Of a stretch of 64,000 nucleotides of DNA, positions 7,972 to 61,239 are shown in pieces. The translations under genes and the position numbers were made by a program. The stretch spans positions 8,943 to 72,942 of the forward strand of contig JANRLJ010000218.1 in assembly GCA_033762735.1 (NCBI GenBank), given 5' to 3'. The notes beneath the pieces were generated by a model, which was not told where the DNA came from, made no database searches, and saw only the letters and a program-made list of their open reading frames with translations. Numbering within the stretch: position 1 is the first letter of the stretch; each line of letters starts with the position of its first letter. The stretch comes from a bacterium. Lineage in GTDB: Bacteria > Chloroflexota > Anaerolineae > Aggregatilineales > Phototrophicaceae.

Positions 7972-9336
7972 ATGCCACTGACGTTAAGCGAAGATCACAT
8001 TTTCACCCTCAGCGGTGATACCGGTGTTTTGAAGGACGGGCGCAAGCTGGCGACCCCTGCCAAATGGTCAGACGTGGGCGCGAGTGACGAGGCCGCCTGG
8101 GGAGCGTGCCAGGGCAGCGCGAAGGAACCGTATAAGGTCGCGGTTGATCTGGGCGGCGGCGAACCGGGCTATAAGTGCAACTGCCCCAGCCGCAAGTTCC
8201 CCTGCAAGCACGCCATCGGCCTGCTGTATCTGATCCTCAATCAGCAGCCCGCCGCGCAGGAACCGCCCGGTTGGGCATCGAGCTGGCTGGCTGGCCGCCG
8301 ACAACGCGCGGAAGCGAAAGCGAATACTGCATCCAGAACGGACTCGGATGCGCCTTCGCCCGCGACCATCAAAAGCGAAGCGGCGCGGGAGGCGGCGCGA
8401 GAGGCCAAAGTCCGCGCCGGGATGGAAGAACTGCGGCTGTGGCTGCGCGATCTGGCGCGGCGTGGTCTGGCGGACAGCACCATCAAGACCTATGAATTCT
8501 GGGATCGCATGGCGGCGCGGCTGGCTGATGCCCAGGCCAGTGCGCTGGCGAAACGGCTGCGGGCGCTGGCCGGGCTGCCCTTCCAGGTCAAGACGGACTG
8601 GACGACGCGGATGCTGGACGAAATCGGGCGGATTCATCTGCTGGTGGAGGCTTATTTCCGCCTCGATACACTCCCGCCGGATTTGCAGGAGGACGTGCGC
8701 ACGCTGATCGGCTGGACGACCAAAAAGGAAGAGGTCGAGGCGCTGCCCGGTCTGCGCGATCTGTGGTGGGTGATGGGACAGTACGACGACGTGGAAGATC
8801 GCCTCAAGGTGCGCCGCGCCTGGGTGTATGGGCAGCGCAGCGGCCAGACCGCCCTGCTGCTGGCGTTCGCCTTCGGGAATGCCTCGCTCGACTTCAATTA
8901 CACACCGGGGCAGTCGTTCGAGGCGGAACTGGCCTTCTATCCGAGTGCCTATCCGCAGCGGGCGGTGCTGAAACAGATGCACAGCGCCGTTCATCGTCCC
9001 ACTTTGTCGGCAGGCGTGGTGCCGCACGGCTTCCTCTATGACGATTTCGAGTCAGCGTTTGCGGCCTATGCCGAGGCGCTGGCGCAAAACCCCTGGCTCG
9101 ACCGCTTCCCGATGGGGCTGCGCGGGGCGCTGCCGCTCAACCGGGCCAACAGCTATGTGATTCGTGACGTGCAGGGGCGTATCGTGCCAATGCAGTTGTA
9201 TAGCGGCCTCACGATCAGTCTGCTGCTGTTCCCGGCGCTGACGGGCGGGCATCCGATTCCGGTCTTCGGTGAATGGAACGGCTACGACTTCCGGCTTATC
9301 ACCCTCGTCTCCGACGGCGCGATGGTCGAGATGTGA
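7972..9336 (+). CDS. SWIM zinc-finger family protein
   Basis: A CxCxnCxH SWIM motif (YKCNCPSRKFPCKH) near the N-terminus. It is the first gene of a five-gene co-oriented cluster. Confidence 0.75.
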   Translation: MPLTLSEDHIFTLSGDTGVLKDGRKLATPAKWSDVGASDEAAWGACQGSAKEPYKVAVDLGGGEPGYKCNCPSRKFPCKHAIGLLYLILNQQPAAQEPPGWASSWLAGRRQRAEAKANTASRTDSDAPSPATIKSEAAREAAREAKVRAGMEELRLWLRDLARRGLADSTIKTYEFWDRMAARLADAQASALAKRLRALAGLPFQVKTDWTTRMLDEIGRIHLLVEAYFRLDTLPPDLQEDVRTLIGWTTKKEEVEALPGLRDLWWVMGQYDDVEDRLKVRRAWVYGQRSGQTALLLAFAFGNASLDFNYTPGQSFEAELAFYPSAYPQRAVLKQMHSAVHRPTLSAGVVPHGFLYDDFESAFAAYAEALAQNPWLDRFPMGLRGALPLNRANSYVIRDVQGRIVPMQLYSGLTISLLLFPALTGGHPIPVFGEWNGYDFRLITLVSDGAMVEM

Positions 9337-9344
9337 GGGATGTA

Positions 9345-9616
9345 TCGAGTACTGAGTGGTGAGTACCGAGTGATGAGGCATGAGTAGGGGCGCACCTATG
9401 TGTGCGCCCGTAAAGGGCAAAGAAAAAGATTTGACGCAAAGGTTCGCAAAGAAACGGGAGATGGTAGGGGCGCACCTATGTGTGCGCCCGTAAAGGACAA
9501 AGAAACGGGATTGATGTCGTAGGGACACGGCATGCCGTGTCCGGCACAACCCAACCTGAACGACCAACCGATTTGTTGCAACCTTCCCGTAGGGGCGACG
9601 TGCGCGTCGCCCGTAC
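9345..9616. repeat. Composite REP-like block: GAGTACCGAGT satellite plus four GTAGGG-stem-loop-CCCTAC palindromes and an AAGATTTGACGCAAAGGTTCGCAAAG module
   Basis: Palindromes seen directly at 9384-9412, 9464-9492, 9519-9542 and 9589-9616. The same modules recur at 14005-14880 and 16172-16340. Confidence 0.85.
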
Positions 9617-9673
9617 ACAAGCCAGCATCACAACCGCTGTTAACCAAATTTAAGGTGATTAAACGAACATAAC

Positions 9674-10579
9674 ATGACCACCGCCGATACGTTATGGGAC
9701 GCCCTGCTCCCCGCCGCACTGCTGGGCACGGAGCGCCACACGCTGCAACTGCCGCCAGATGCGCCGCAGGTCTTACACGGCTTGCCCACGACCGATCCCG
9801 AAGCGCGGCTGCTGGCGACCGCCGCGACCGCTGCCATGATGCGCCGTTCCGGTCACATCCCGCCGGAAGACACCCACCTGCTGCCCGACCCTGCGCCGGA
9901 GGAAACGCTGCCTGTATGCACGCCGCGCTCTGCAAGGCGGCTCAATACCCTGCTCGGCCAAACGCTCGGTCAGGGACGCCCGCCATCACTATCGCTGTTG
10001 ATTGAATGGATGCACATCATCAGGCAGCGGGGGAAGCGCGTACCGTACTCGGTGCTGCCTGCTCTGCTTGATCTGACTTATCGCCAGCGCAGTGATGTGG
10101 ATTTCGTCCGCTTGGTCAGCGAGGTTATGGGCGAACGCGGGGGCTGGCTGGCACAGACGAATATGCGGTTTGAATACCTCCTCCATCCCCAACAGCCGCT
10201 TGAGAACGACTCATCGACGATACAGGCCGACAGAGATGCGCGGGAAGCACCTATCCTCGAACAGCTTCAGGAGGAAAGCGGCGCAGCCCTGAACGAGGCT
10301 GTTCAGCAATTGAGAGACATCACCTACACCTGGAGCGATACACTTACGACACTGTTCACCGAACGGATGGTGACGCTGATCGATCAGGCACCGCCGAGCA
10401 TTTTCACCGCCCTTCACTGGTACGATGTGCTGTTCGCCGCCCAAATCCCGCCCCATCGCCTGGAGGAGGTTCTGGCACGGCTGAAAAATATGCCAGAGGA
10501 AAAGCTGTCCTATCTGAAACGCCTGATCGACAAAATCGAATTTCGCCGCGACATGCTATTGGAGCTTGCCAATGAGTAA
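9674..10579 (+). CDS. DUF5691-like protein (second gene of SWIM/MoxR/vWA cluster)
   Basis: Position and size match the conserved uncharacterised cluster partner. The family name is recalled from annotation of similar clusters and is not verifiable here. Confidence 0.5.
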   Translation: MTTADTLWDALLPAALLGTERHTLQLPPDAPQVLHGLPTTDPEARLLATAATAAMMRRSGHIPPEDTHLLPDPAPEETLPVCTPRSARRLNTLLGQTLGQGRPPSLSLLIEWMHIIRQRGKRVPYSVLPALLDLTYRQRSDVDFVRLVSEVMGERGGWLAQTNMRFEYLLHPQQPLENDSSTIQADRDAREAPILEQLQEESGAALNEAVQQLRDITYTWSDTLTTLFTERMVTLIDQAPPSIFTALHWYDVLFAAQIPPHRLEEVLARLKNMPEEKLSYLKRLIDKIEFRRDMLLELANE

Positions 10580-11666
10580 CCAACCCAACACCGTCCAGCG
10601 CCGCCACGCCGAGGAAGAATACGCCGAAGAACTGTACGAACTGGCGAAGGCCGATACACGCCAGCGCCCGCCCAACTGGGCACTCTCACCCTGGGCGGTG
10701 GCGACCTATCTGCTCGGCGGGACGCTGGACAACGGCTACACCATCACGGCCAAGTACATCGGAGACCGCCGCCTGATCGAAATTGCGATTGCGACGCTGG
10801 CGACCGACCGCGCCCTGCTGCTGCTGGGCGTCCCCGGCACGGCCAAATCGTGGGTGTCTGAGCATCTCACGGCGGCTATCTGCGGCGACTCGACGCTGCT
10901 GGTGCAGGGGACAGCGGGCACGTCGGAAGAAGCCATGCGCTACGGCTGGAACTATGCGCGGCTGCTGGCGGAAGGCCCCTCGGAAAATGCGCTGGTCGCC
11001 AGCCCACTGATGCGGGCGATGGCCGAGGGCAAAATCTGCCGTGTGGAAGAACTGACGCGCATCCCCGCCGATGTACAGGACACACTGATTACGGTGCTTT
11101 CCGAGAAGACGCTGCCCATACCCGAACTGAACAGCGAGGTGCAGTCCGTCAAGGGCTTCAACGTGATCGCCACCGCCAATGACCGCGACCGGGGCGTGAA
11201 CGATATGTCCAGCGCCCTCACCCGCCGCTTTAACACCGTCGTGCTGCCCACGCCCGCCACGTTGGACGAAGAGGTCGAGATCGTCCGCCAGCGCGTCGGC
11301 AGCCTGGGGCGGATGCTGGAACTCCCGGCGGAAACACCCGCGCTGGAGGAGATGCGCCGCGTGGTGACGATCTTCCGCGAACTGCGGCACGGCCTCACGC
11401 TCGATGGGCAGACGCGGCTCAAGTCGCCCTCGTCCACGCTCAGCACCGCCGAGGCGATTTCGGTCGTCACGCAGGGGCTTTCGCTGGCGGCGCATTTCGG
11501 CAGCGGGACGCTCACCGCGCGCGATGTTGCCGGGAGCGTGGTCGGCGCGGTGGTTAAGGACCCCACGCAGGATCGCACGATCTGGCTGGAATATCTGGAA
11601 ACCGTCGCCCGCACCCGCCCGGACTGGACGGATTTGTACGAGGCCTGCCGTGAGGTGACGCGGTGA
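10566..11666 (+). CDS. MoxR-like AAA+ ATPase (AAA_5 type)
   Basis: Walker A (GVPGTAKS), a Walker B-like CRVEEL, and a sensor/arginine region (NVIATANDRDRG). It overlaps its neighbours by a few nt, which indicates operon coupling. Confidence 0.8.
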   Translation: MPMSNQPNTVQRRHAEEEYAEELYELAKADTRQRPPNWALSPWAVATYLLGGTLDNGYTITAKYIGDRRLIEIAIATLATDRALLLLGVPGTAKSWVSEHLTAAICGDSTLLVQGTAGTSEEAMRYGWNYARLLAEGPSENALVASPLMRAMAEGKICRVEELTRIPADVQDTLITVLSEKTLPIPELNSEVQSVKGFNVIATANDRDRGVNDMSSALTRRFNTVVLPTPATLDEEVEIVRQRVGSLGRMLELPAETPALEEMRRVVTIFRELRHGLTLDGQTRLKSPSSTLSTAEAISVVTQGLSLAAHFGSGTLTARDVAGSVVGAVVKDPTQDRTIWLEYLETVARTRPDWTDLYEACREVTR

Positions 11667-13993
11667 GCGCCAGTTCTAAAAAAGGCGGGTCACGCTCCGT
11701 CCACTTCTTCGGCATCCGGCATCACGGCGTTGGCTCCGCGCGGAGTCTGCGCCGTGCGCTGGAACAATTGCAGCCGGACGCGGTGCTGATCGAAGGCCCG
11801 CCGGATGCCGATAAGCTGATCGCGCTGGCATCTCATGCCGACATGCGGCCACCTGTCGCGCTGCTGATCTATAACCCCACACAGCCCCGCGAGGCGGCCT
11901 GGTATCCGTTCGCGGTCTATTCGCCCGAATGGCAGGCGATTCAATACGCGCTGGGGAATAAAATTCCGGTCACATTTATGGATCTGCCGCAGAAGCACCA
12001 GCTTCCGCTGCTGTATGCGCCGCCCGCTGAGGCCGAAGCACCGCCGGAAGACACCGACGCGGATGCCGATGCGGGCGAGGACGCGGGCGAAAACGCGCTG
12101 CTTGAAGCCGAACCCGCCGACATGCCTCCGCCGGTCGATTCCGCCGCGCTGTTACGCCTCGATCCGCTGCAAGCGCTGGCGCAGGCCGCTGGCTACAGCG
12201 ACAGCGAACGCTGGTGGGAGCACATGATCGAGGAACGGCAGAGCGGCGAGACGATTTTCGAGGCTATTCAGGAAGCGATGACCGCGCTGCGGGATGCGAC
12301 AGGCGCTCATCCCGACCCCGGCTACGCGCATCGGGAAGCCCTGCGCGAGGCATGGATGCGCAAGACCATCCGCGCGACGGAGAAGAAAGCGACACGGCTG
12401 GCGGTGATCTGCGGCGCATGGCATGTTCCCGCTTTGCTCGACCGGACGAATGTGGCGGCGGACGACGCGCTGCTCAAAGGACTGCCTTCGGTGGCGACCA
12501 CCGCCACCTGGACGCCCTGGACGTACAGCCGTCTCTCGCGGGACAGCGGCTATGGCGCGGGCATCACCTCGCCGGGGTGGTATCAACACTTGTGGGATAC
12601 CGCGCCTGACCAGATCACCATGCGCTGGATGTCGCGCGTGGCGGGGCTGCTGCGCGGGCAGGATTTTTCCGCCTCCACCGCGCAGGTCATCGACGGCGTG
12701 CGCCTGGCGGAAGCGCTGGCGGCGCTGCGCGGGAGGCCGCTGCCGGGTCTGGACGAGATGAACGAGGCGGCACTGGCCGTGTTCTGCCGGGGAGACTCCG
12801 CCCCCCTCAACCTGATTCGGCGCGACCTCATCATCGGGGATGCGCTGGGCGAAGTGCCGCCGGATGCGCCCACCGTCCCGCTCCAGCGTGATCTGGAATT
12901 GCAGCAGAAGGCGCTGCGGCTCAAGCCCGCGCTCGATGAAAAAATCCATGACTTCGATCTGCGCAAGCCCAATGATCTGGCGCGGAGTCGTCTGCTCCAT
13001 CGGCTGCGGCTGCTGCAAATTGAGTGGGGGGTGCGCCAGCAGAACCAGGTGCAGGCCACCGGGACATTTCATGAGTTCTGGAAGCTGGCGTGGAAGCCCG
13101 AATTTGCCATCGCGGTGATCGAGGCCAGCATGTGGGGCAACACGATTCAGGATGCGGCGGCAGCCAGAGTGCGCGACCAGGCCGAAACCAGCGACAGCCT
13201 CCTGCCCATTACGGCGCTGTTGGAGGATGTGCTGCTGGCCGATCTGCCGGAAGCGGCGGAGATCGTGCTGAATCGGCTGGAATCGGTCGCGGCGCTGACG
13301 AGCGATGTGGCCGTGCTGATGGACTCGCTGCCCGCGCTGGTCGATGTGCTGCGCTATGGCAACGTTCGTAAAACGGATACAGCGCTGGTGGCGCAGGTGG
13401 TCGATGGGCTGGTGATGCGCGTGTGCGTGGGACTTGCCCCGGCCTGCGCCTCGCTCGACGATGATGCGGCGGCGCTGATGTACAACCGCCTCAATCAGAC
13501 GCATTCAGCCATCACGCTGCTGCAAAACGCCGACTATACCGCCCACTGGCAGGGGGCATTGGCGGAGGTGGCCGATTTACGCGCCGGGCATGGATTGGTC
13601 GTGGGGCGGGCGGTGCGTCTGCTGCGCGATGCCGGGATTCTTTCGCCGGAGGAAGTCGCACGGCGGCTGCGGCTGGCGCTGTCGCGGGCGGTCGAACCGG
13701 CGCAGGCAGCGGCCTGGGTGGAAGGCTTTCTCAAAGGCAGCGGCGCGGTGCTGCTGTATGACGATACACTGTTCACCACGCTCGATTCGTGGCTGGCGCT
13801 GCTCCCCGGCGACACGTTTGATCTGCTGCTGCCGCTGCTGCGACGGACCTTCTCGACCTTCGCGTCGCCCGAACGCCGTCAGATCGGGGAGCGGGCGCGG
13901 CACGGCGTCCGCCAGCGGAGCGATCAACTGCTGCTGGACGAAGCACGGACGGCGAAGGTGCTGCCCATGCTGGAGCGGCTGCTGGGCATATAG
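11663..13993 (+). CDS. DUF5682-like large protein (fourth gene of cluster)
   Basis: 776 aa. The start overlaps the stop of the AAA ATPase gene (ATGA-type coupling). I see no recognisable catalytic motifs. Confidence 0.5.
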   Translation: MSASSKKGGSRSVHFFGIRHHGVGSARSLRRALEQLQPDAVLIEGPPDADKLIALASHADMRPPVALLIYNPTQPREAAWYPFAVYSPEWQAIQYALGNKIPVTFMDLPQKHQLPLLYAPPAEAEAPPEDTDADADAGEDAGENALLEAEPADMPPPVDSAALLRLDPLQALAQAAGYSDSERWWEHMIEERQSGETIFEAIQEAMTALRDATGAHPDPGYAHREALREAWMRKTIRATEKKATRLAVICGAWHVPALLDRTNVAADDALLKGLPSVATTATWTPWTYSRLSRDSGYGAGITSPGWYQHLWDTAPDQITMRWMSRVAGLLRGQDFSASTAQVIDGVRLAEALAALRGRPLPGLDEMNEAALAVFCRGDSAPLNLIRRDLIIGDALGEVPPDAPTVPLQRDLELQQKALRLKPALDEKIHDFDLRKPNDLARSRLLHRLRLLQIEWGVRQQNQVQATGTFHEFWKLAWKPEFAIAVIEASMWGNTIQDAAAARVRDQAETSDSLLPITALLEDVLLADLPEAAEIVLNRLESVAALTSDVAVLMDSLPALVDVLRYGNVRKTDTALVAQVVDGLVMRVCVGLAPACASLDDDAAALMYNRLNQTHSAITLLQNADYTAHWQGALAEVADLRAGHGLVVGRAVRLLRDAGILSPEEVARRLRLALSRAVEPAQAAAWVEGFLKGSGAVLLYDDTLFTTLDSWLALLPGDTFDLLLPLLRRTFSTFASPERRQIGERARHGVRQRSDQLLLDEARTAKVLPMLERLLGI

Positions 13994-14004
13994 GGAAAAA
14001 GAAT

Positions 14005-14880
14005 AAATGGCGACGCAAAAACCCAAAGAAGAAGGGAAAAGAAAAAGATTTGACGCAAAGCCGCAGCGCCAATTTGCGCGAATGCAAAGGTTCGCAAAGA
14101 GAAGGATGGCTGTAGGGGCGCACCCGTGTGTGCGCCTGTAATGCAAGAGAAAAAGGCGACACAAAGCCGCAGCGCCAATTTGCGCGAACGCAAAGGTTCG
14201 CAAAGTGAAGGATGGCTGTAGGGGCGCACCCGTGTGTGCGCCCGTAACACAAGAGAAAAAGGCGACGCAAAGCCGCAGCGCCAATGTGCGCGAACGCAAA
14301 GGTTCGCAAAGAAGAAGAGAAAAGAAAAAGGCGACGCAAAGCCGCAGAGAACGCAAAGGTTCGCAAAGTGAAGGATGGCTGTAGGGGCGCACCCGTGTGT
14401 GCGCCCGTAACACAAGAGAAAAAGGCGACGCAAAGCCGCAGAGAACGCTAAGGTTCGCAAAGTGAAGGATGGCTGTAGGGGCGCACCCGTGTGTGCGCCT
14501 GTAATGCAAGAGAAAAAGGCGACGCAAAGCCGCAGCGCCAATTTGCGCGAACGCAAAGGTTCGCAAAGAAGAAGAGAAAAGAAAAAGGCGACGCAAAGCC
14601 GCAGAGAACGCTAAGGTTCGCAAAGAGAAGGATGGCTGTAGGGGCGCACCCGTGTGTGCGCCCGTAACACAAGAGAAAAAGGCGACGCAAAGCCGCAGCG
14701 CCAATGTGCGCGAACGCAAAGGTTCGCAAAAAGAAGAGAAAAGGCGACGCGAAGATGCAAAGGTTCGCAAAGAGAAGAATGGCTGTAGGGGCGCACCCGT
14801 GTGTGCGCCTGTAATGCAAGGACACGGCATGCCGTGTCCCTACAAAGGCAATAAAGGGCGACGCACCGCATCGCCCCTAC
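14005..14880. repeat. Complex tandem repeat array (non-CRISPR), roughly 95-165-bp units
   Basis: Six copies of GTAGGGGCGCACCCGTGTGTGCGCC(C/T)GTAA at 14113, 14218, 14381, 14475, 14638 and 14785. The sequence between copies is itself repeated (GCGACGCAAAGCCGCAG, CGCCAATTTGCGCGAACGCAAAGGTTCGCAAAG). Two further palindromes lie at 14819-14843 and 14864-14880. Confidence 0.9.
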
Positions 14881-14924
14881 GACTACGATTGTGCGCGACT
14901 TTTTCAAAGGCTGACGGCTGATCG

Positions 14925-14990
14925 CTGACAGCTAAAAGCTAAAAGCTAACAGCTAAAAGCTAACCGCTAATTGCTAACTGCTAACAACTG
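14925..14990. repeat. AGCTAA(A/C) hexa/heptamer microsatellite
   Basis: AGCTAAAAGCTAAAAGCTAACAGCTAAAAGCTAACCGCTAATTGCTAACTGCTAAC lies directly upstream of the vWA gene. Related GCTAAC/GCGATTAGC runs occur at 27255-27300, 42915-42945 and 43030-43065. Confidence 0.8.
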
Positions 14991-15003
14991 AGGACTCTCC
15001 CAG

Positions 15004-16170
15004 ATGACCCACGACACTCCCGACGAACGCCTGCGCCGCTGGCGACTGATCCTCGGCGGCGAAAACGACGGCACCGAATGCAAGCTGGGCCAGCGCGACA
15101 GGGACATTGACCAGGCGTTAGGCGCCCTCTATGGGGGAGGGGATGGCAGCGTGATGGGAAAACCCGCCGGGCGCGAAGGTTCGCTGGGTGCGTCAGCGCC
15201 GAATGTCGCCCGCTGGTTGGGCGATATCCGCACCTACTTCCCGGCGTCGGTCGTGCGCGTGATGCAAAAGGACGCGCTGGAACGGCTGAACCTCAAGCAA
15301 ATGCTGCTGGAGCCGGAAATGCTGGAAGCCGTCGAGCCGGATGTACATCTGGTGGCGACGCTGCTCTCGCTCAACCGCATCATGCCCGACCGCACGCGAG
15401 ACACCGCCCGGCAGGTTGTGCGCCGCGTGGTCGATCAACTGGAACGCCGTTTGCGCCGCAAAACCGAACAGGCCGTGCTGGGCAGCCTGAACCGCGCCGC
15501 CCGCAACAACCGCCGCCCTCGCCATAACGAGATCGACTGGAACAAGACCATCCGCGCCAATCTGAAGCATTACCAACCGGAATATAAGACCATTATCCCC
15601 GAACGGCGCTTCGGCTATGGACGCAAGCAGCAGCGGCTGCGCGACATTGTGCTGTGCGTCGATCAGAGCGGGTCGATGGGAACGTCAGTGGTGTATTCGA
15701 GCATCTTCGGGGCGGTGCTGGCTTCGCTCAAGGCCGTCAGCACGCAGATGGTGGTGTTCGATACAGCGGTGGTCGATCTGACTGCCGAACTGCGCGACCC
15801 GGTGGAACTGCTGTTCGGGACTCAGCTCGGCGGCGGGACGGACATCAACCGCGCACTCGCCTACTGTCAGGGCATTATCCGCCGCCCATCGCAGACGATT
15901 CTGGTGCTCATCAGCGATCTGTACGAAGGCGGCGATGCGGAGTCGATGCTGCGGCGGGTCGGGGCGCTGGTCGGTTCTGGTGTGCAGATGGTGGCGCTGC
16001 TGGCGCTTAATGATGACGGTGCACCAGTCTATGACAAGAAGCACGCGGCAACCTTCGCGGCGATGGGCGTTCCTGCCTTCGCCTGCACGCCTGACCTGTT
16101 CCCTGATCTGATGGCGGCGGCCATCGAACGGCGCGACCTCTCGCAGTGGGCGGCGGCCAATTTGGAGTAA
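15004..16170 (+). CDS. von Willebrand factor A (vWA) domain protein
   Basis: MIDAS DxSxS (VDQSGSMG), with downstream T (GGGTDIN) and D (LISDLYEGG) residues. It is the fifth gene of the cluster and is separated from gene 4 by the repeat array. Confidence 0.8.
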   Translation: MTHDTPDERLRRWRLILGGENDGTECKLGQRDRDIDQALGALYGGGDGSVMGKPAGREGSLGASAPNVARWLGDIRTYFPASVVRVMQKDALERLNLKQMLLEPEMLEAVEPDVHLVATLLSLNRIMPDRTRDTARQVVRRVVDQLERRLRRKTEQAVLGSLNRAARNNRRPRHNEIDWNKTIRANLKHYQPEYKTIIPERRFGYGRKQQRLRDIVLCVDQSGSMGTSVVYSSIFGAVLASLKAVSTQMVVFDTAVVDLTAELRDPVELLFGTQLGGGTDINRALAYCQGIIRRPSQTILVLISDLYEGGDAESMLRRVGALVGSGVQMVALLALNDDGAPVYDKKHAATFAAMGVPAFACTPDLFPDLMAAAIERRDLSQWAAANLE

Positions 16171-16171
16171 C

Positions 16172-16340
16172 CGTGTTTGGTCACGGGCGCACACGTGGGT
16201 GCGCCCCTACAGCATCCATTCTCTTTGCGAACCTTTGCACCTCTACGCCTGTGCGTCGCCGTTTTCTTATCCCTTATGCTTTGCGAACCTTTGCATCTTT
16301 GCGCCTTTGCGTCAAATCTTTTAACGCTTTTTTGCCGTTT
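16172..16340. repeat. Inverted copy of the 14005-14880 repeat modules
   Basis: TACGGGCGCACACGTGGGTGCGCCCCTAC, CTTTGCGAACCTTTGC (x2) and CTTTGCGTCAAATCTTTT are reverse complements of the upstream array modules. Confidence 0.85.
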
Positions 16341-16343
16341 TCC

Positions 16344-18602
16344 CTACGGCGTATCCTCTCCCGCCAGCAGCGACCCGTGCTCGAACAGCATCTTTTCCAG
16401 AAAGGTCGCCTGTTCCTCCGCCGTCATCGGGCGCGGACGGGCGAAGTCCTCAATCACGCCCGTGAACAGATCAACCGTCAGCAGTCGCCCGTCATAGAGA
16501 TAGAGCGTGTCCATGAAGAACTCACGGTTTTCCAGTTCCGGCTGATCGAAATACAGGTTGCCCAGCCCATGATGCAGGAAGGACTCGCGCCCGTCCACGC
16601 TGGCATGGAACTCGAACACCTGTGGGCGGTGCGCCTGTGTCCCCAGCACCACATCCGCGCCGATCTCCCCCAGCGTACGGAAATGGGTGAGCTGCCGTTC
16701 AATCGGATTATAGCGGTCATATTCGGCGTACTGCACCAGCACCACCACCACATCGACCTGTTGGCGCAGCGCGGGGATGGCCTCGCGCAGCCAGCCATCG
16801 ATCACGCAGTAGGCCGCGCCGGGACGTTCCTCACCGAGAAAATCACTGGCAAGGGCAAATTCCGGCCCATTCCAGTTGCAGGCGAACAGGCCGACTCGTG
16901 TACCGTTGTGCTCCACGATGAGCGGTGCGCGGGCTTCGGTCACGCTTTCCCCGCCGCCGACCGTCTGCATCCCGGCCTCGCGATACATCTCCAGACTGCG
17001 GCGGTAGACGTTAAAGCCGTAGTCATTGTTGTGGTTGCCCGTCAGTTCGAGGATGTCCACGCCGAGCAGCGTGAGCAGGTCGAAATGCGCGTCCTTGCTG
17101 CACAGCCCGCCTAAAACGGGTTCGTCGGCTTCGGGGCAGCGCGGCGCAAACGACACTTCATTGCTGACATGGAAAAAGTCTGCCGTGCTGACATAGGGCA
17201 GAATGCCTTCCGCCGCCCATTCGACTCCGTTATTGTCCAGCGCGGTCAGGGTGTTACGGGCTAAGGCCGTCACGCCGGAAAAGGTCATGCGCGTCAGCAG
17301 CGCAGGGTCGAAATTGGGCGACTCGGACTCGAAGGCGAAGGGATACGTGGGCATGTCCAGCGGGTGCAGATCGCCCTCTGAGGTCTGAATCCGCAGCACC
17401 CGATAGCGCGGCGTGAGCGCATCAAAGGCCAGCAGCGTATAGCGGTCGGGATTCTCCCACAGGAACGCCTGCAACTGATCCGGCGGGAGCACCCGGTTAA
17501 ACGGATCGACCGGGACGCCGTGTTCGATTAAGGCCTCGGCGGTGGCGGAATCCAGCACCAGCGCGGGATCGACCTCGCCATTCAGAATACGGTTGAGGCG
17601 GTCGAGATCGAGCCGGGTTTGTGTGCTGCGAAAGGCGGTGGCGGGGAGAAAGAGAGACACGCTTTCGGACAAGCCCTCACCCCCCTGGCGAACTTGTTCG
17701 CCCCCACTCTCCCTTATAGAGAGGGGGAGAGCACTCGCGGTGGCTTCTGAAGTAGCTTCTGCTTGCGTTGTGATGGTTTCCTGTGAAGGAGCCTCCCACC
17801 CGACGCTGTAGAAGGCGAGGTATTCGGCCACATGCGACGACCAGTAGGCGTTGTTGTGTTCGCCTTCGGGATAGACGATGTAGTCATGCGGCAGGCCGCG
17901 CGTGGTCAGATTGTCGTGCATCAGATCGAAGCCGTACTGCGCATAATCGTCGCGCCCGCGATCCAGCCAGATGCGCAGGGATTCAATGCCGGGTGCATTC
18001 AGCGCCAGATCAAGCGGGTTGAAGTCTGGCGGGGCGTTCTGTGGGTCGAAAAAGGCACTGTGTCCGCCGACGGTGCTGAACAGCGCGGGATTGCGGAAGG
18101 CGATGTGGAACGCCCAGAATCCCCCACGCGAGATGCCGCCGATAGCACGGGTGGCCCGGTCAGTGGAGACGCGGTGATTCGCTTCCACGTCGGGCAGCAG
18201 TTCCGTCAGGAAGACGTTCTCCCAGGAGAGGCGGTCAAAGCGGTTCTCGTTCGCCATCCACGCGCCATAGGGCATGACGACCACGAACGGCGGCAGCACA
18301 CCCGCTTCGATTCCGGCGTCCATCGCCTGCGGCAGTCCCAGATCCACCCACAGGCGATTGGTCGAGTTCGAGCCGTGCATCAGATACAGCACCGGATAGG
18401 TCGCGTCGGTCTGCGCATAGCAGGGAGGCAGATAGACGGTATACACCAGTTCCAGATCAACCAGTTCGCTGGAATAGGTGCGGTCGATCACGCGCCCTTC
18501 TGTTGACGTGCATCTCTGCGCCTGGGCGGGAACAGGCCGCAGGACGAGCGCGACGAGCAGGCTGAGGGCGAAAACAAACGGCATCCATGAGAGTCGGCGC
18601 AT
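16344..18602 (-). CDS. Secreted fusion protein: esterase-family alpha/beta hydrolase plus CapA-like (poly-gamma-glutamate capsule biosynthesis / metallophosphatase) domain
   Basis: Signal peptide, then esterase features (LYLMHGSNS, GGISRGG), then a CapA-like C-terminal half. The interdomain linker is encoded by a MITE-like sequence at 17641-17760. Confidence 0.65.
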   Translation of the reverse strand: MRRLSWMPFVFALSLLVALVLRPVPAQAQRCTSTEGRVIDRTYSSELVDLELVYTVYLPPCYAQTDATYPVLYLMHGSNSTNRLWVDLGLPQAMDAGIEAGVLPPFVVVMPYGAWMANENRFDRLSWENVFLTELLPDVEANHRVSTDRATRAIGGISRGGFWAFHIAFRNPALFSTVGGHSAFFDPQNAPPDFNPLDLALNAPGIESLRIWLDRGRDDYAQYGFDLMHDNLTTRGLPHDYIVYPEGEHNNAYWSSHVAEYLAFYSVGWEAPSQETITTQAEATSEATASALPLSIRESGGEQVRQGGEGLSESVSLFLPATAFRSTQTRLDLDRLNRILNGEVDPALVLDSATAEALIEHGVPVDPFNRVLPPDQLQAFLWENPDRYTLLAFDALTPRYRVLRIQTSEGDLHPLDMPTYPFAFESESPNFDPALLTRMTFSGVTALARNTLTALDNNGVEWAAEGILPYVSTADFFHVSNEVSFAPRCPEADEPVLGGLCSKDAHFDLLTLLGVDILELTGNHNNDYGFNVYRRSLEMYREAGMQTVGGGESVTEARAPLIVEHNGTRVGLFACNWNGPEFALASDFLGEERPGAAYCVIDGWLREAIPALRQQVDVVVVLVQYAEYDRYNPIERQLTHFRTLGEIGADVVLGTQAHRPQVFEFHASVDGRESFLHHGLGNLYFDQPELENREFFMDTLYLYDGRLLTVDLFTGVIEDFARPRPMTAEEQATFLEKMLFEHGSLLAGEDTP

Positions 18603-18946
18603 GGGGCTTCCTTGTGCTGCGGGACTGAACGATCAACGTGCACGATGATAGCCGCATTCGATGCCCAGCCCAACCCTGTTTCAGCAATCCTTTTTGGCTT
18701 TAGGGAAGTCGTGGATTTGTAGGGGCGACTCGGCGAGTCGCCCCTACGGGCACAACCTGCAATAAGACAACACTTTTATGCAAATACACCGCAAAGGGTA
18801 TGTCCGGCAACTCCTGACAATTTCCTGGGTGGTCTTGGGATAGGGGCGCAGCATGCTGCGCCCCTACGGGAAACCCAGATATAAGAAGGTGCAGGTTTTT
18901 CCGTAGGGACACGACCTGCCGTGTTCTGCCATCGGCAAATAATTGC

Positions 18947-27146: not shown

Positions 27147-27698
27147 CGTTTCTCTCCTTAGTTGTGCAAACACACAATCGTATTTCTCCCCCGGCCTACC
27201 CTCCGCCGGGAGCATGCCACATAAACACCGCCGAAGCGATGGGAGGGCTAGAAAGAAGTTATCAATTGTTAGTTAATAGTTGTTAGCGATTAGCTTTTTG
27301 CTTTTTGCTGTCAGCGATCAGCTTTTTTATAGGCACGACCTCATGCCTTTTGCAACTGCCCAATCCTGACTCAACATTGAATAATCGTTTCATCATTGGT
27401 AGGGACACGGCATGCCGTGTCCTGATGATTATGGTGTGCTGCGGTGGGTGATACGAACTCAAGCTGACACCTTCTACCGCTATGTCCTGTTTGCAGACGA
27501 AACCCTTACGGTATTCAGCCCCTAAAACATCGTCTCTCTAAAGTTGCCCACCCCCACTACACCTTTACCAATCCAGGTCACTCCTTAAGTACACCCGAAT
27601 TGAAGGCGGAGGATTGTGCGGACACGGCACGCCGTGTCCCTACGAAACCATCACTCGGTACTCACGACTCGGCACTGCACTCATCACTCGGTACTTCC

Positions 27699-42913: not shown

Positions 42914-43067
42914 CCGTTAGCGATTAGCGATCAGCCATTCGCTTTTTGATAAAACCTATTTTTGGGCTAGAGAATGTTGTGTTGACATTTGTACTCAAAA
43001 GCGGAGTACATAAGCATCAATGTCAACACGGGCTAATCGCTAAAAGCTAACCGCTGAGAGCTAACTC

Positions 43068-48026: not shown

Positions 48027-48195
48027 TCGTCCCGTCCTTTCGCAAAAAAGCGGGATTATGAACGGTCGGGCGGAATCCGGCGAGAGCCAAAGAAAGGATT
48101 TGACGCCAAGAGAGGGGGTAGGGGCGCACCCGTGTATGCGCCCGATGTGGCAAAAAGAGAGGGGGCAGGCGTCGAACCCGCCCCTGTCTGGCTGC

Positions 48196-51744: not shown

Positions 51745-51910
51745 TATAGCATCGGGAGTACTGAGTACCGAGTCGAAAGTATTGAGTGGGGAGTGCCGAG
51801 TACCGAGTACCGAGTCGAAAGTACCGAGCGGAAAGCGTGGTGCTGCGAGGTTGATTGAACGACTCGGCAGATGTTGTCGTAGGGACACGGCATGCCGTGT
51901 CCAGCGAGGC
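51745..51910. repeat. GAGTACCGAGT satellite plus GTAGGGACACGGCATGCCGTGTCC palindrome
   Basis: GAGTACCGAGT occurs four times at 51750-51830 and the palindrome lies at 51879-51902. The same composite occurs at 27619-27700, 38431-38545 and 58840-58875. Confidence 0.85.
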
Positions 51911-60195: not shown

Positions 60196-61239
60196 TTACT
60201 CCGCGCCTCGTGCGCCGACTACATAGCGCTGCACCACCCGAATCAGTTCTTCGGTCTGGATTGGCTTTTCAAGAATATCCTTGACGCCCTTAAGCACCAG
60301 CATCTCGCGGGTGCGGCGGCCATCCCATTTCAGACTGGTGATAATCACCACCGGAACGCTGGTCTGATAGCGCTGGAGCAGATCGAGCAGGTACATACCG
60401 TCCTGCCCGGTCTTCTGGTCGTCCGGGCCGAGCATCATGTCCAGCGTAATCAGTTCATAACGGTGCTTGCGGATAAGGACGCTGGCTTCGTTCAGGGTGC
60501 TGGCCGTGTGCACCTCAAGCCCCTGCCCGGAAAGAATATCGCGCAGCACTTCCTGCATGGCTTCCATGTCTTCAATTGCCAGCGCCAGCGGTTTCACGTG
60601 GGTGTGTAAGGATGAGGTCGTAATACGGTTTTCGGAAGTTTCTTCTTCCCGTCCCCCCTTCATCTGCGCCGCGTCCCCTCGCGCCGCCTCCCCTCGCGCC
60701 GCGTCTGTCCGTGCCGCGTCCCCTCGCGCCGCGTCTGTCCGTGCCGAATCTATACGCGCCGCATCCACTCGCGCCACTTCGTGCACATTCAGCCCTGGCC
60801 GGGGCGCGGTGTCTTCCAGCGGGTCGCGCTGCTGTTCACCACGCCGCACCACCGCCTGAAACAGGGCGCGGTTCAGCTCCTTAAAGGCCTGTTCCATCCG
60901 GTCGCGGAAGTCGATGTAATGCAGATGATCGAGAAAAGCCGGGAGGGCGGTATAGCGCATCATCAGGGGGATGACCGTGCAGTTGTATTCCTGGGCGCGC
61001 TCGACTTCGTACTGCACCCAGCTTGAGCGCACCGACTCCGGCGTGAGCAGCACCAGCATAGCGACAGATTGGGTGAGCGCCCGGTCAATCGACTTCTTCC
61101 ATTCATCGCCGCCCTTGAGTTCGGTGAAGTCGATCCAGGTGCGAAAGCCCATTTCCTCGACCCGTTGTGAGAAAAGATTCGCGGTGAGACGATCTTCGTG
61201 GCTGTAACTGATAAAAACACCCACTTCCTGTCGCTGCAT
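60196..61239 (-). CDS. TIR domain protein fused via repeat linker to C-terminal response-regulator receiver domain
   Basis: N-terminal TIR signature (VFISYSHEDR...SSWVQYEVERA), the linker DAARIDSARTDAARGDAARTDAARGEAARGDAA, and a receiver with acidic pocket and phosphoacceptor (LAIEDMEA...ELITLDMML...K in LEKP). Confidence 0.7.
   Translation of the reverse strand: MQRQEVGVFISYSHEDRLTANLFSQRVEEMGFRTWIDFTELKGGDEWKKSIDRALTQSVAMLVLLTPESVRSSWVQYEVERAQEYNCTVIPLMMRYTALPAFLDHLHYIDFRDRMEQAFKELNRALFQAVVRRGEQQRDPLEDTAPRPGLNVHEVARVDAARIDSARTDAARGDAARTDAARGEAARGDAAQMKGGREEETSENRITTSSLHTHVKPLALAIEDMEAMQEVLRDILSGQGLEVHTASTLNEASVLIRKHRYELITLDMMLGPDDQKTGQDGMYLLDLLQRYQTSVPVVIITSLKWDGRRTREMLVLKGVKDILEKPIQTEELIRVVQRYVVGARGAE
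60664..60775. repeat. 15-bp tandem repeat (about 7 units) encoding the (D/E)AAR(G/T/I) linker of the TIR-receiver protein
   Basis: GCGCCGCGTCCCCTC / GCGCCGCGTCTGTCC / GTGCCGCGTCCCCTC units are seen directly. Confidence 0.85.

Follow-up and report, generated by a model that had tools for sequence, protein, structure and literature searches.

Repeat array between the DUF5682 and vWA genes

We analysed a 64,000-nucleotide stretch of contig JANRLJ010000218.1 (hereafter the window), in which a five-gene cluster encoding SWIM, DUF5691, MoxR, DUF5682 and von Willebrand factor A (vWA) proteins is split by a tandem array of short hairpins (Table 1). Between the end of the DUF5682 gene and the start of the vWA gene lies a gap of 1010 nt, which the array fills. 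It carries six direct, plus-strand copies of a 30-nt hairpin, GTAGGGGCGCACCCGTGTGTGCGCCCGTAA, which we identify below as a repetitive extragenic palindrome (REP) and call REP1. The start-to-start spacing of the six copies is 106, 163, 94, 163 and 147 nt, and the number of REP1 matches expected in dinucleotide-preserving shuffles is 0.00. Three REP1 copies outside the array comprise two plus-strand variants at 9384 and 9464 and one minus-strand copy at 16181-16210. The segments between the hairpins are themselves repetitive, with 12 matches to the linker motif GCAAAGGTTCGCAAAG against 0.06 expected and 9 matches to the linker motif P against 0.5 expected. An earlier note on this DNA, written from the letters alone, had described six copies of a 30-bp palindrome lying 94-163 bp apart between the fourth and fifth genes, with spacers composed of repeated modules, and the motif searches and shuffles bear out both statements.

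Tandem Repeats Finder resolves the region from 14052 to 14820 into nested periods of 94, 106, 163 and 257 nt. Fuzzy matching was used to map the array as a series of pieces named P, Q, R, S, H (the hairpin), T and A (a purine run), which follow one another in the order A-PQRSHT-PQRSHT-PQRA-PRSHT-PRSHT-PQRA-PRSHT-PQR..RSH. The array includes two copies, 97% identical, of a 257-nt super-unit that bears two hairpins; they lie at 14186-14441 and 14443-14698. Four of the six hairpins are therefore the product of a single recent segmental tandem duplication and not of independent insertions. At the 3′ end of the array, the last REP1 and an inverted hairpin of a second type, REP2, form an inverted doublet (14785 to 14843) with the GTAG tags outermost, similar to a REPIN (REP doublet forming a hairpin). 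Hairpins of the REP2 type are also present in the window at 9519, 27399, 27616 (minus strand) and 51879.

Table 1. Genes, repeat features and linker modules of the window, with positions counted from its first letter.
Feature	Position	Strand	Remarks
SWIM gene	7972-9336		First gene of the cluster
DUF5691 gene	9674-10579		Second gene
MoxR AAA_5 gene	10566-11666		Third gene
DUF5682 gene	11663-13993	+	Directly 5′ of the array; Pfam PF18934, E = 2e-269
VWA_CoxE (vWA) gene	15004-16170	+	Directly 3′ of the array; Pfam PF05762, E = 6e-54
Esterase/PGA_cap gene	16344-18602	-	3′ end bears the inverted block; Pfam, and synteny with contig L201 (see text)
Array 5′ end	13996-14111	+	Purine-rich lead-in, then the first P-Q-R-S linkers; module map
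Head-to-tail REP array	14112-14814	+	Six REP1; motif search, module map and self-alignment
REP1 copies of the array	14112-14141, 14218-14247, 14381-14410, 14475-14504, 14638-14667, 14785-14814	+	
REP2 hairpin, inverted	14820-14843	-	GTAGGGACACGGCATGCCGTGTCC; hairpin scan and module map
REP3-type hairpin, inverted	14852-14880	-	GTAGGGGCGATGCGGTGCGTCGCCC; terminator-like on the minus strand; hairpin and terminator scans
Nine GCTAACA-type heptamers	14924-14986	+	Immediately 5′ of the ribosome-binding site and start codon of vWA; Tandem Repeats Finder
Module P			GCGACGCAAAGCCGCAG
Module Q			CGCCAATTTGCGCGAA
Module R			CGCAAAGGTTCGCAAAG
Module S			GAAGGATGGCT
Module T			CACAAGAGAAAAAG
Module A			AAGAAGAGAAAAGAAAAAG; purine run
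Mosaic block, SWIM-DUF5691 gap	9347-9616	+	Heptamers, two REP1 variants, R, REP2 and REP3
Parts of the mosaic block	Heptamers 9347-9377; REP1 variants 9384-9413, 9464-9493; R 9435-9451; REP2 9519-9546; REP3 9589-9616	+	
Inverted block, convergent vWA-esterase/PGA_cap gap	16181-16322	-	REP1, R and P-like modules
Parts of the inverted block	REP1 16181-16210; R 16223-16239, 16279-16295; P-like 16243-16259, ~16297-16322	-	
Dispersed REP1 variant	48118-48147	+	Purine-rich flanks; between minus-strand NmrA-like and M24-like genes

Identity of the hairpin

In REP1 an unpaired GTAG is followed by an 8-bp GC stem that begins with GGG and is capped by a 6-nt loop; the predicted fold has an energy of -18.5 kcal/mol (z = -3.1). 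Di Nocera et al. 2013 (PMC3733652) place the GTAG-tagged REP super-family in eight phyla, Chloroflexi among them, and note that its members favour sites immediately downstream of ORFs, in gaps between unidirectional or convergent genes. The 30-nt REP1 unit has the form typical of this family, a GC-rich, imperfectly palindromic stem-loop of 20-40 nt, and the unpaired GT[AG]G at the stem foot is present throughout: nine of nine REP1 copies, together with the other REP types of the window, begin with GTAGGG. Dispersed and mostly extragenic copies are abundant within the window, where a structural scan returned 28 hairpins headed by GTAGGG; they fall into at least six stem types and occupy about 17 sites, most of them intergenic. 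A looser scan for GT[AG]G hairpins yielded 26, whereas shuffled sequence gave about 6, and fully palindromic ‘double-foot’ GTAG...CTAC forms lie at 18719 and 44787. REP1 itself occupies four separate loci in the window and is found downstream of ORFs at all of them, between unidirectional genes at 9.4, 14 and 48.1 kb and between convergent genes at 16.2 kb.

REP1 is thus a canonical REP, and its array a REP cluster. It belongs to a known class, that of GTAG-tagged REP clusters associated with the transposases of TnpA-REP subclass 2.4 and group 4 described in the next section. Mildly unusual aspects of the array are its head-to-tail order, its regular linker mosaic and its site inside a normally overlapping gene pair. 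The papers retrieved in a literature search for the literal sequence GTAGGGGCG were all eukaryotic and unrelated.

REP1 in metagenomes and RAYT-like genes

REPs are generally regarded as non-autonomous mobile DNA serviced by REP-associated tyrosine transposases (RAYTs, also called TnpA-REP). In a metagenome scan that used the 25-nt core of REP1 as an exact-match query, the core was present in more than 120 contigs among the matches listed. These contigs range from 37 to 73% GC and stem from widely differing habitats; the core was also present in 18 IMG/VR (predicted viral) contigs. In most matching contigs it is followed, 5-40 nt away, by an inverted partner of the form GGGC(G/A)GAC...GTC(C/T)GCCCCTAC with compensatory substitutions in the stem, and the two together make a REPIN-like doublet with GTAG tags at its outer ends.

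Among the matches listed, ten contigs (L084, L114, L121, L123, L166, L170, L179, L182, L193 and L198) carry REP1 in-frame within a RAYT-like ORF. These ORFs take the form ...MPNHFHGI-VGADLCVxP...GAHTGAPL-IVQWFKTMTTNEYIRGV...LWQRNYYEHIIRNE...YIxNNP and contain the motifs NHxH...WQRNYYEH...YIxNNP; their best NCBIfam match is REP_Tyr_transpos, below its curated cut-off, and their Pfam match is Y1_Tnp. In these genes REP1 and its inverted partner have the HuH motif on one side and the Tyr motif on the other, and in some of the genes the embedded unit is tandemly duplicated (GAHIGAPLRKEGEADRNVHPEM occurs twice in L198, and L114 has DPNNKHV repeats). By their motifs, the RAYT-like ORFs with an embedded REP1 match the published TnpA-REP subclass 2.4, which is characterized by NH[IFV]H, WQ and YIxNNP motifs, by ‘long’ REPs whose stem foot has three G-C pairs, by ‘double-foot’ REPs and by REPs located inside tnpA-REP (Quentin et al. 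2018, PMC6006769). The RAYT group that corresponds to this subclass, group 4, is common in Cyanobacteria, Chlorobia and Caldilineae (Bertels et al. 2017, PMC5581495). Insertion of a REP within tnpA-REP has thus been published already (PMC6006769), and a RAYT-like gene that appears to carry its own REP ‘seed’ could explain co-transfer of the transposase and the REP.

Because a single 25-nt REP sequence is common to such a broad range of contigs, its distribution suggests horizontal spread. This breadth is striking, given that REPIN-RAYT systems of the classical type have been described as specific to a lineage. Both the shared 25-nt REP and its embedding in RAYT-like genes bear on how REP-RAYT systems spread.

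Linker modules and other repeat blocks

The linkers have a much narrower distribution than the hairpin. Modules P and R were found in none of the 202 other fetched loci except L201, a related contig discussed below, and a search of viral contigs with the R 17-mer gave 10 matches, all in unrelated coding sequence and about the number that we estimate for chance. With a widespread REP and local linkers, the mosaic is therefore a pan-bacterial REP joined to lineage-specific linkers, as opposed to a repeat family specific to the operon. This qualifies a claim of the earlier note, that the operon is punctuated three times by one repeat family: the modules do occur at three sites, including the direct-orientation modules between the first two genes (9384-9616) and the inverted partial copy after the vWA stop, which is present on self-alignment, whereas the hairpin is generic (28 in the window, more than 120 contigs among the matches listed) and only the linkers are local.

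The window also contains other repeats. Two inverted copies of REP2 lie about 190 nt apart between minus-strand ABC-transporter genes (27399-27426, plus strand; 27616-27643, minus strand), as a long-spacer REP dimer, and heptamer repeats adjoin the second copy. Intergenic heptamers of the GCTAACA and GAGTACC types and 15-mers (GCGCCGCGTCCCCTC), often beside REPs, are found at 14924-14986, 9347-9377, 27650-27695, 43032-43065, 51757-51835 and 60666-60775; they resemble the STRR (short tandemly repeated repetitive) sequences of filamentous cyanobacteria.

Comparison with related loci

The JGI contig L201 carries a vWA that is 96% identical to the one in the window and lies in the same orientation. 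Its DUF5682-vWA spacer measures 365 bp and is built from the same modules, with one full REP1 and one hybrid REP, followed by a shorter version of the heptamer run that precedes vWA (556-598). The hybrid hairpin (476-511) consists of GTAGGGGCGCACCCGTG joined to AGTCATGCCGCGTCCCTAC, and looks like the ‘double-foot’ REP that would arise if the centre of an inverted REP1/REP2 pair were deleted; the counterpart of such a pair lies at 14785-14843 in the window. On the 3′ side of vWA, L201 has an extra ABM-domain gene, a REP2 and then an inverted REP1-R-P-A block (2270-2445) that abuts the 3′ end of a minus-strand homologue of the esterase/PGA_cap gene. From this synteny it follows that the inverted block travels with the neighbouring minus-strand gene and that the boundary of the indel coincides with REPs. 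The indel amounts to about 490 nt (16171-16343 of the window versus 1779-2460 of L201) and comprises the ABM-domain gene, the REP2 and extra P/A modules; since one of its edges lies at a REP1 copy, it suggests a REP-associated rearrangement. The earlier note had raised the possibility of a hotspot, and the comparison agrees with it, with two hairpins in L201 versus six in the window and a gene-sized indel bordering the repeats.

The DUF5682 and vWA genes overlap by 4 nt in P0003 and P0006 (76-78% identity), and are 59 nt apart in a metagenome-assembled genome (MAG) of Chloroflexaceae. Across 54 more distant orthologous loci, the gap is at most 150 nt in 29 and exceeds 150 nt, with inserts, in 25. 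These inserts include NADAR genes (L008, L018, L025, L054), a UDG-family gene (L002), a SnoaL/DUF4440 gene (L003), species-specific repeats (L006, L018, L050, L058), a single REP (L047) and multi-kb inserts. The DUF5682-vWA junction is ancestrally tight and has been invaded repeatedly, and resembles a variable slot for accessory genes, the rest of the five-gene system being conserved. The array is a recent arrival at this normally coupled junction and varies between close relatives. It cleanly exemplifies the expansion of a REP cluster within a gene pair that is normally coupled, and a close relative shows a part-way stage.

Origin of the array and alternative explanations

In our judgement the array is, with high probability, a GTAG-tagged REP cluster in which REP1 was inserted at the DUF5682/vWA junction and then locally amplified. 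This explanation draws on what the hairpin is and how it is built, on how it is dispersed and linked to RAYT-like genes elsewhere, on how the array was duplicated and on how relatives differ. A REP1 with a purine-rich linker would have landed downstream of the DUF5682 stop, at a gene junction that normally overlaps, and would have been amplified locally by tandem segmental duplication, through unequal recombination or replication slippage. The expected outcome is a head-to-tail array with its end capped by the inverted REP1/REP2 doublet, and the blocks at 9.4 and 16.2 kb would be other members of the same dispersed REP population.

Several observations weigh against this explanation. No RAYT gene or Y1-transposase motif lies within the window, and head-to-tail REP order is reportedly rare (PMC3733652). 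Modules P, Q and R are seen only in this lineage and could be a separate repeat family. The REP1 copy at 48118 is antisense to its flanking genes, so that REP orientation is inconsistent with respect to transcription; a rule that the purine-rich strand is always sense to the upstream gene fitted three of the four loci and was dropped on account of this copy. Finally, the exact copy number of the 94-257-nt units could have been altered by assembly.

This last point can be extended to an explanation of its own, namely that the length of the array is an assembly artefact and that the true locus resembles the 365-bp version. The NCBI entry identical to the vWA protein is labelled as a MAG, so the window apparently derives from a metagenome-assembled genome, and because units of 94-257 nt that are up to 97% identical are hard for short reads, the array could be miscounted. 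The units nevertheless bear distinguishing substitutions and comprise three unit types in a fixed order, and the array modules are independently present at the same junction in L201, which makes a wholesale artefact improbable. We regard the chance that the array is a CRISPR locus, or a degenerate CRISPR-like one, as negligible. A palindromic repeat of about 30 nt in six direct reiterations does resemble one, yet the segments between hairpins are irregular (64-133 nt) and built from repeated modules in place of unique spacers, the repeat carries a GTAG tag and is dispersed elsewhere as single or inverted copies, and a Pfam scan of 28 ORFs of the window revealed no cas-like domain. Rfam matched no family, either over the whole window at gathering thresholds or over 9200-16500 at E <= 1, and PADLOC gave no match for the proteins of the operon. 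The earlier note was thus right to reject CRISPR. A defence-system annotation of the operon was set aside for want of a PADLOC match, and a dedicated structured RNA was discarded because no Rfam family matched and conservation is limited to one close relative.

The same note had read the inverted blocks that bracket vWA as a possible recombination or inversion substrate, and a rival explanation makes them the arms of an invertible or recombining segment that switches vWA expression. Inverted arms do exist some 1.9 kb apart, 59-71 nt long and 77-88% complementary overall (14190-14248 with 16180-16238, 59 nt, 86%; 14279-14349 with 16241-16311, 71 nt, 77%), but they are short and diverged, and inverted REPs in convergent intergenic regions reflect the normal REP distribution (PMC3733652). 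The idea is unsupported because in L201 the ABM-domain gene lies inside the ‘bracket’, separating the block from vWA, while the block stays with its minus-strand neighbour and the orientation of vWA is unchanged. Only one orientation was thus seen, the Pfam search detected no recombinase domain in the flanking genes, and we consider such a switch very unlikely. An intercistronic regulatory element maintained by selection is rather unlikely. Its hairpins would stabilise the DUF5682/MoxR message and attenuate read-through into vWA, with hairpin copy number as a tunable dial for subunit stoichiometry, much like a contingency locus. The sense orientation of the array within the operon, hairpins without U-runs on that strand, a copy number that differs among close relatives and the malE-malF precedent (PMC5927463) all speak for it, as does a C-to-T variant in three of the six array hairpins that retains a G.U pair only in plus-strand RNA. 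This variant carries little weight because it is one substitution spread by duplication; moreover, overlapping genes suffice in relatives at 76-78% identity, and the same REP lies antisense at 48118. The analysis removes a false CRISPR lead and a false inversion-switch lead, and insertion of REP1 followed by local amplification is our preferred account.

Possible effects on the operon

A promoter scan found no sigma-70-like promoter upstream of vWA. The earlier note had listed a terminator-insulator function among its possibilities. On the plus strand the array hairpins are followed by A-rich sequence and not by a T-run, no intrinsic terminator was found on that strand within the array, and the P modules are terminator-like on the minus strand only. 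As no vWA promoter was found and the hairpins lack a U-run on the sense strand, the array is probably transcribed as part of the operon. A terminator role was also considered for the block after vWA and rejected, with no terminator-like site on the plus strand and z-scores of -1.7 and 0.0 for the fold of 16171-16320.

For malE-malF, protection of the upstream cistrons by intergenic hairpins has been established (PMC5927463). By analogy with that structure, the stacked hairpins 3′ of DUF5682 would bar 3′-5′ exonucleases and may attenuate read-through, without being full terminators. Insertion of the array would also remove the stop/start overlap and with it translational coupling, and would probably reduce vWA output relative to DUF5682. 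The array need not be selected for any function. One speculative and, in our view, improbable extension is that the REP concatemer acts as a copy-number ‘valve’ (two versus six hairpins) that heritably tunes vWA relative to MoxR/DUF5682, which would turn selfish REP DNA into a contingency locus. If so, a contingency locus would occupy the slot that elsewhere is filled by NADAR, UDG-family and SnoaL-like genes. Should the vWA:DUF5682 ratio indeed be modulated by the array, this would provide a simple handle on the uncharacterised and widespread SWIM-DUF5691-MoxR-DUF5682-vWA system.

The gene cluster and its annotation

The cluster is widespread: all 8000 candidates scored for vWA passed E <= 1e-50. 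Named relatives of the vWA protein at 72-74% identity come from several phyla and include Chloroflexota and Chloroflexaceae. A GTDB scan gave no relative above 55% identity. The DUF5691 protein has 301 aa and aligns to positions 2-154 of the 491-position Pfam profile, while a Chloroflexaceae homologue (L203) has 523 aa; the protein encoded here may be a shortened or divergent subunit. A literature search on DUF5682 and DUF5691 found nothing relevant.

The repeats also affect ORF prediction. A minus-strand ORF of 417 aa (13577-14830) runs through the array and was rejected as a patchwork of repeat-encoded peptides, which hops between frames, the lengths of the units not being divisible by three. 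The REP array thereby explains a spurious ORF for annotation purposes. A mini-ORF, ATGGCTGTAGGGGCGCACCCGTGTGTGCGCC(C/T)GTAA, is present at 14107-14142 and in every later unit and would encode MAVGAHPCVRP* or ...RL*. As a coding candidate this 11-codon ORF (ATGGCT-GTAGGG...TAA) was dismissed, since it has no usable Shine-Dalgarno spacing and its frame is not kept at 9384. More generally, the MAG is REP-rich, the window having a density of about 0.4 hairpins per kb, which is a warning for its annotation.

Relation to known repeat systems

The closest known systems are the GTAG-tagged REPs and their clusters (Di Nocera et al. 2013, PMC3733652; Nunvar et al. 2010). The elements of the window share with them a GC-rich stem-loop of 20-40 nt, an unpaired terminal GTAG, a multi-copy and dispersed distribution, and a location mostly just 3′ of ORFs between unidirectional or convergent genes; clusters that reiterate units in tandem, with their flanking DNA, have likewise been described (PMC3733652). 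The present array differs from the described clusters in being almost wholly head-to-tail, in having linkers that form a regular mosaic of their own, and in its host, which is uncultured and probably Chloroflexota-like. The REPs associated with subclass 2.4 and RAYT group 4 (PMC6006769, PMC5581495) are similar in the three G-C pairs of the stem foot that follow the GTAG and in their ‘double-foot’ variants, here at 18719 and 44787. In metagenomes the identical hairpin lies in-frame in transposase-like genes with the NHxH/WQ/YIxNNP motifs, as in subclass 2.4, whereas the 64-kb window itself has no such transposase gene.

The array also resembles the bacterial interspersed mosaic elements (BIMEs) of Escherichia coli, such as those of malE-malF and hisJ-hisQ, in placing REP hairpins and conserved linkers between genes of one operon. 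BIMEs are established protectors of mRNA 3′ ends or attenuators. Unlike BIMEs, in which REPs alternate as Y/Z pairs, the array has its six REP1 copies in the same orientation, and the two share no sequence similarity. Similarity to REPINs (Bertels & Rainey 2011, PMC3116915) is found in the terminal REP1(+)/REP2(-) pair and in the metagenomic REP1 doublets, which are inverted pairs capable of forming a long hairpin. Within the array, only the last REP1 is paired in this way with a short spacer, and five of the six lie outside inverted doublets. The BOX elements of Streptococcus pneumoniae and the STRR heptamers of cyanobacteria are modular intergenic elements with variable internal tandem modules. 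Heptamer tandems similarly flank REPs here (14924-14986 and 9347-9377), although the sequences are unrelated and BOX lacks a GTAG-tagged hairpin. Taken against these systems, the feature is a new example of an ordinary, already described kind of repeat cluster.

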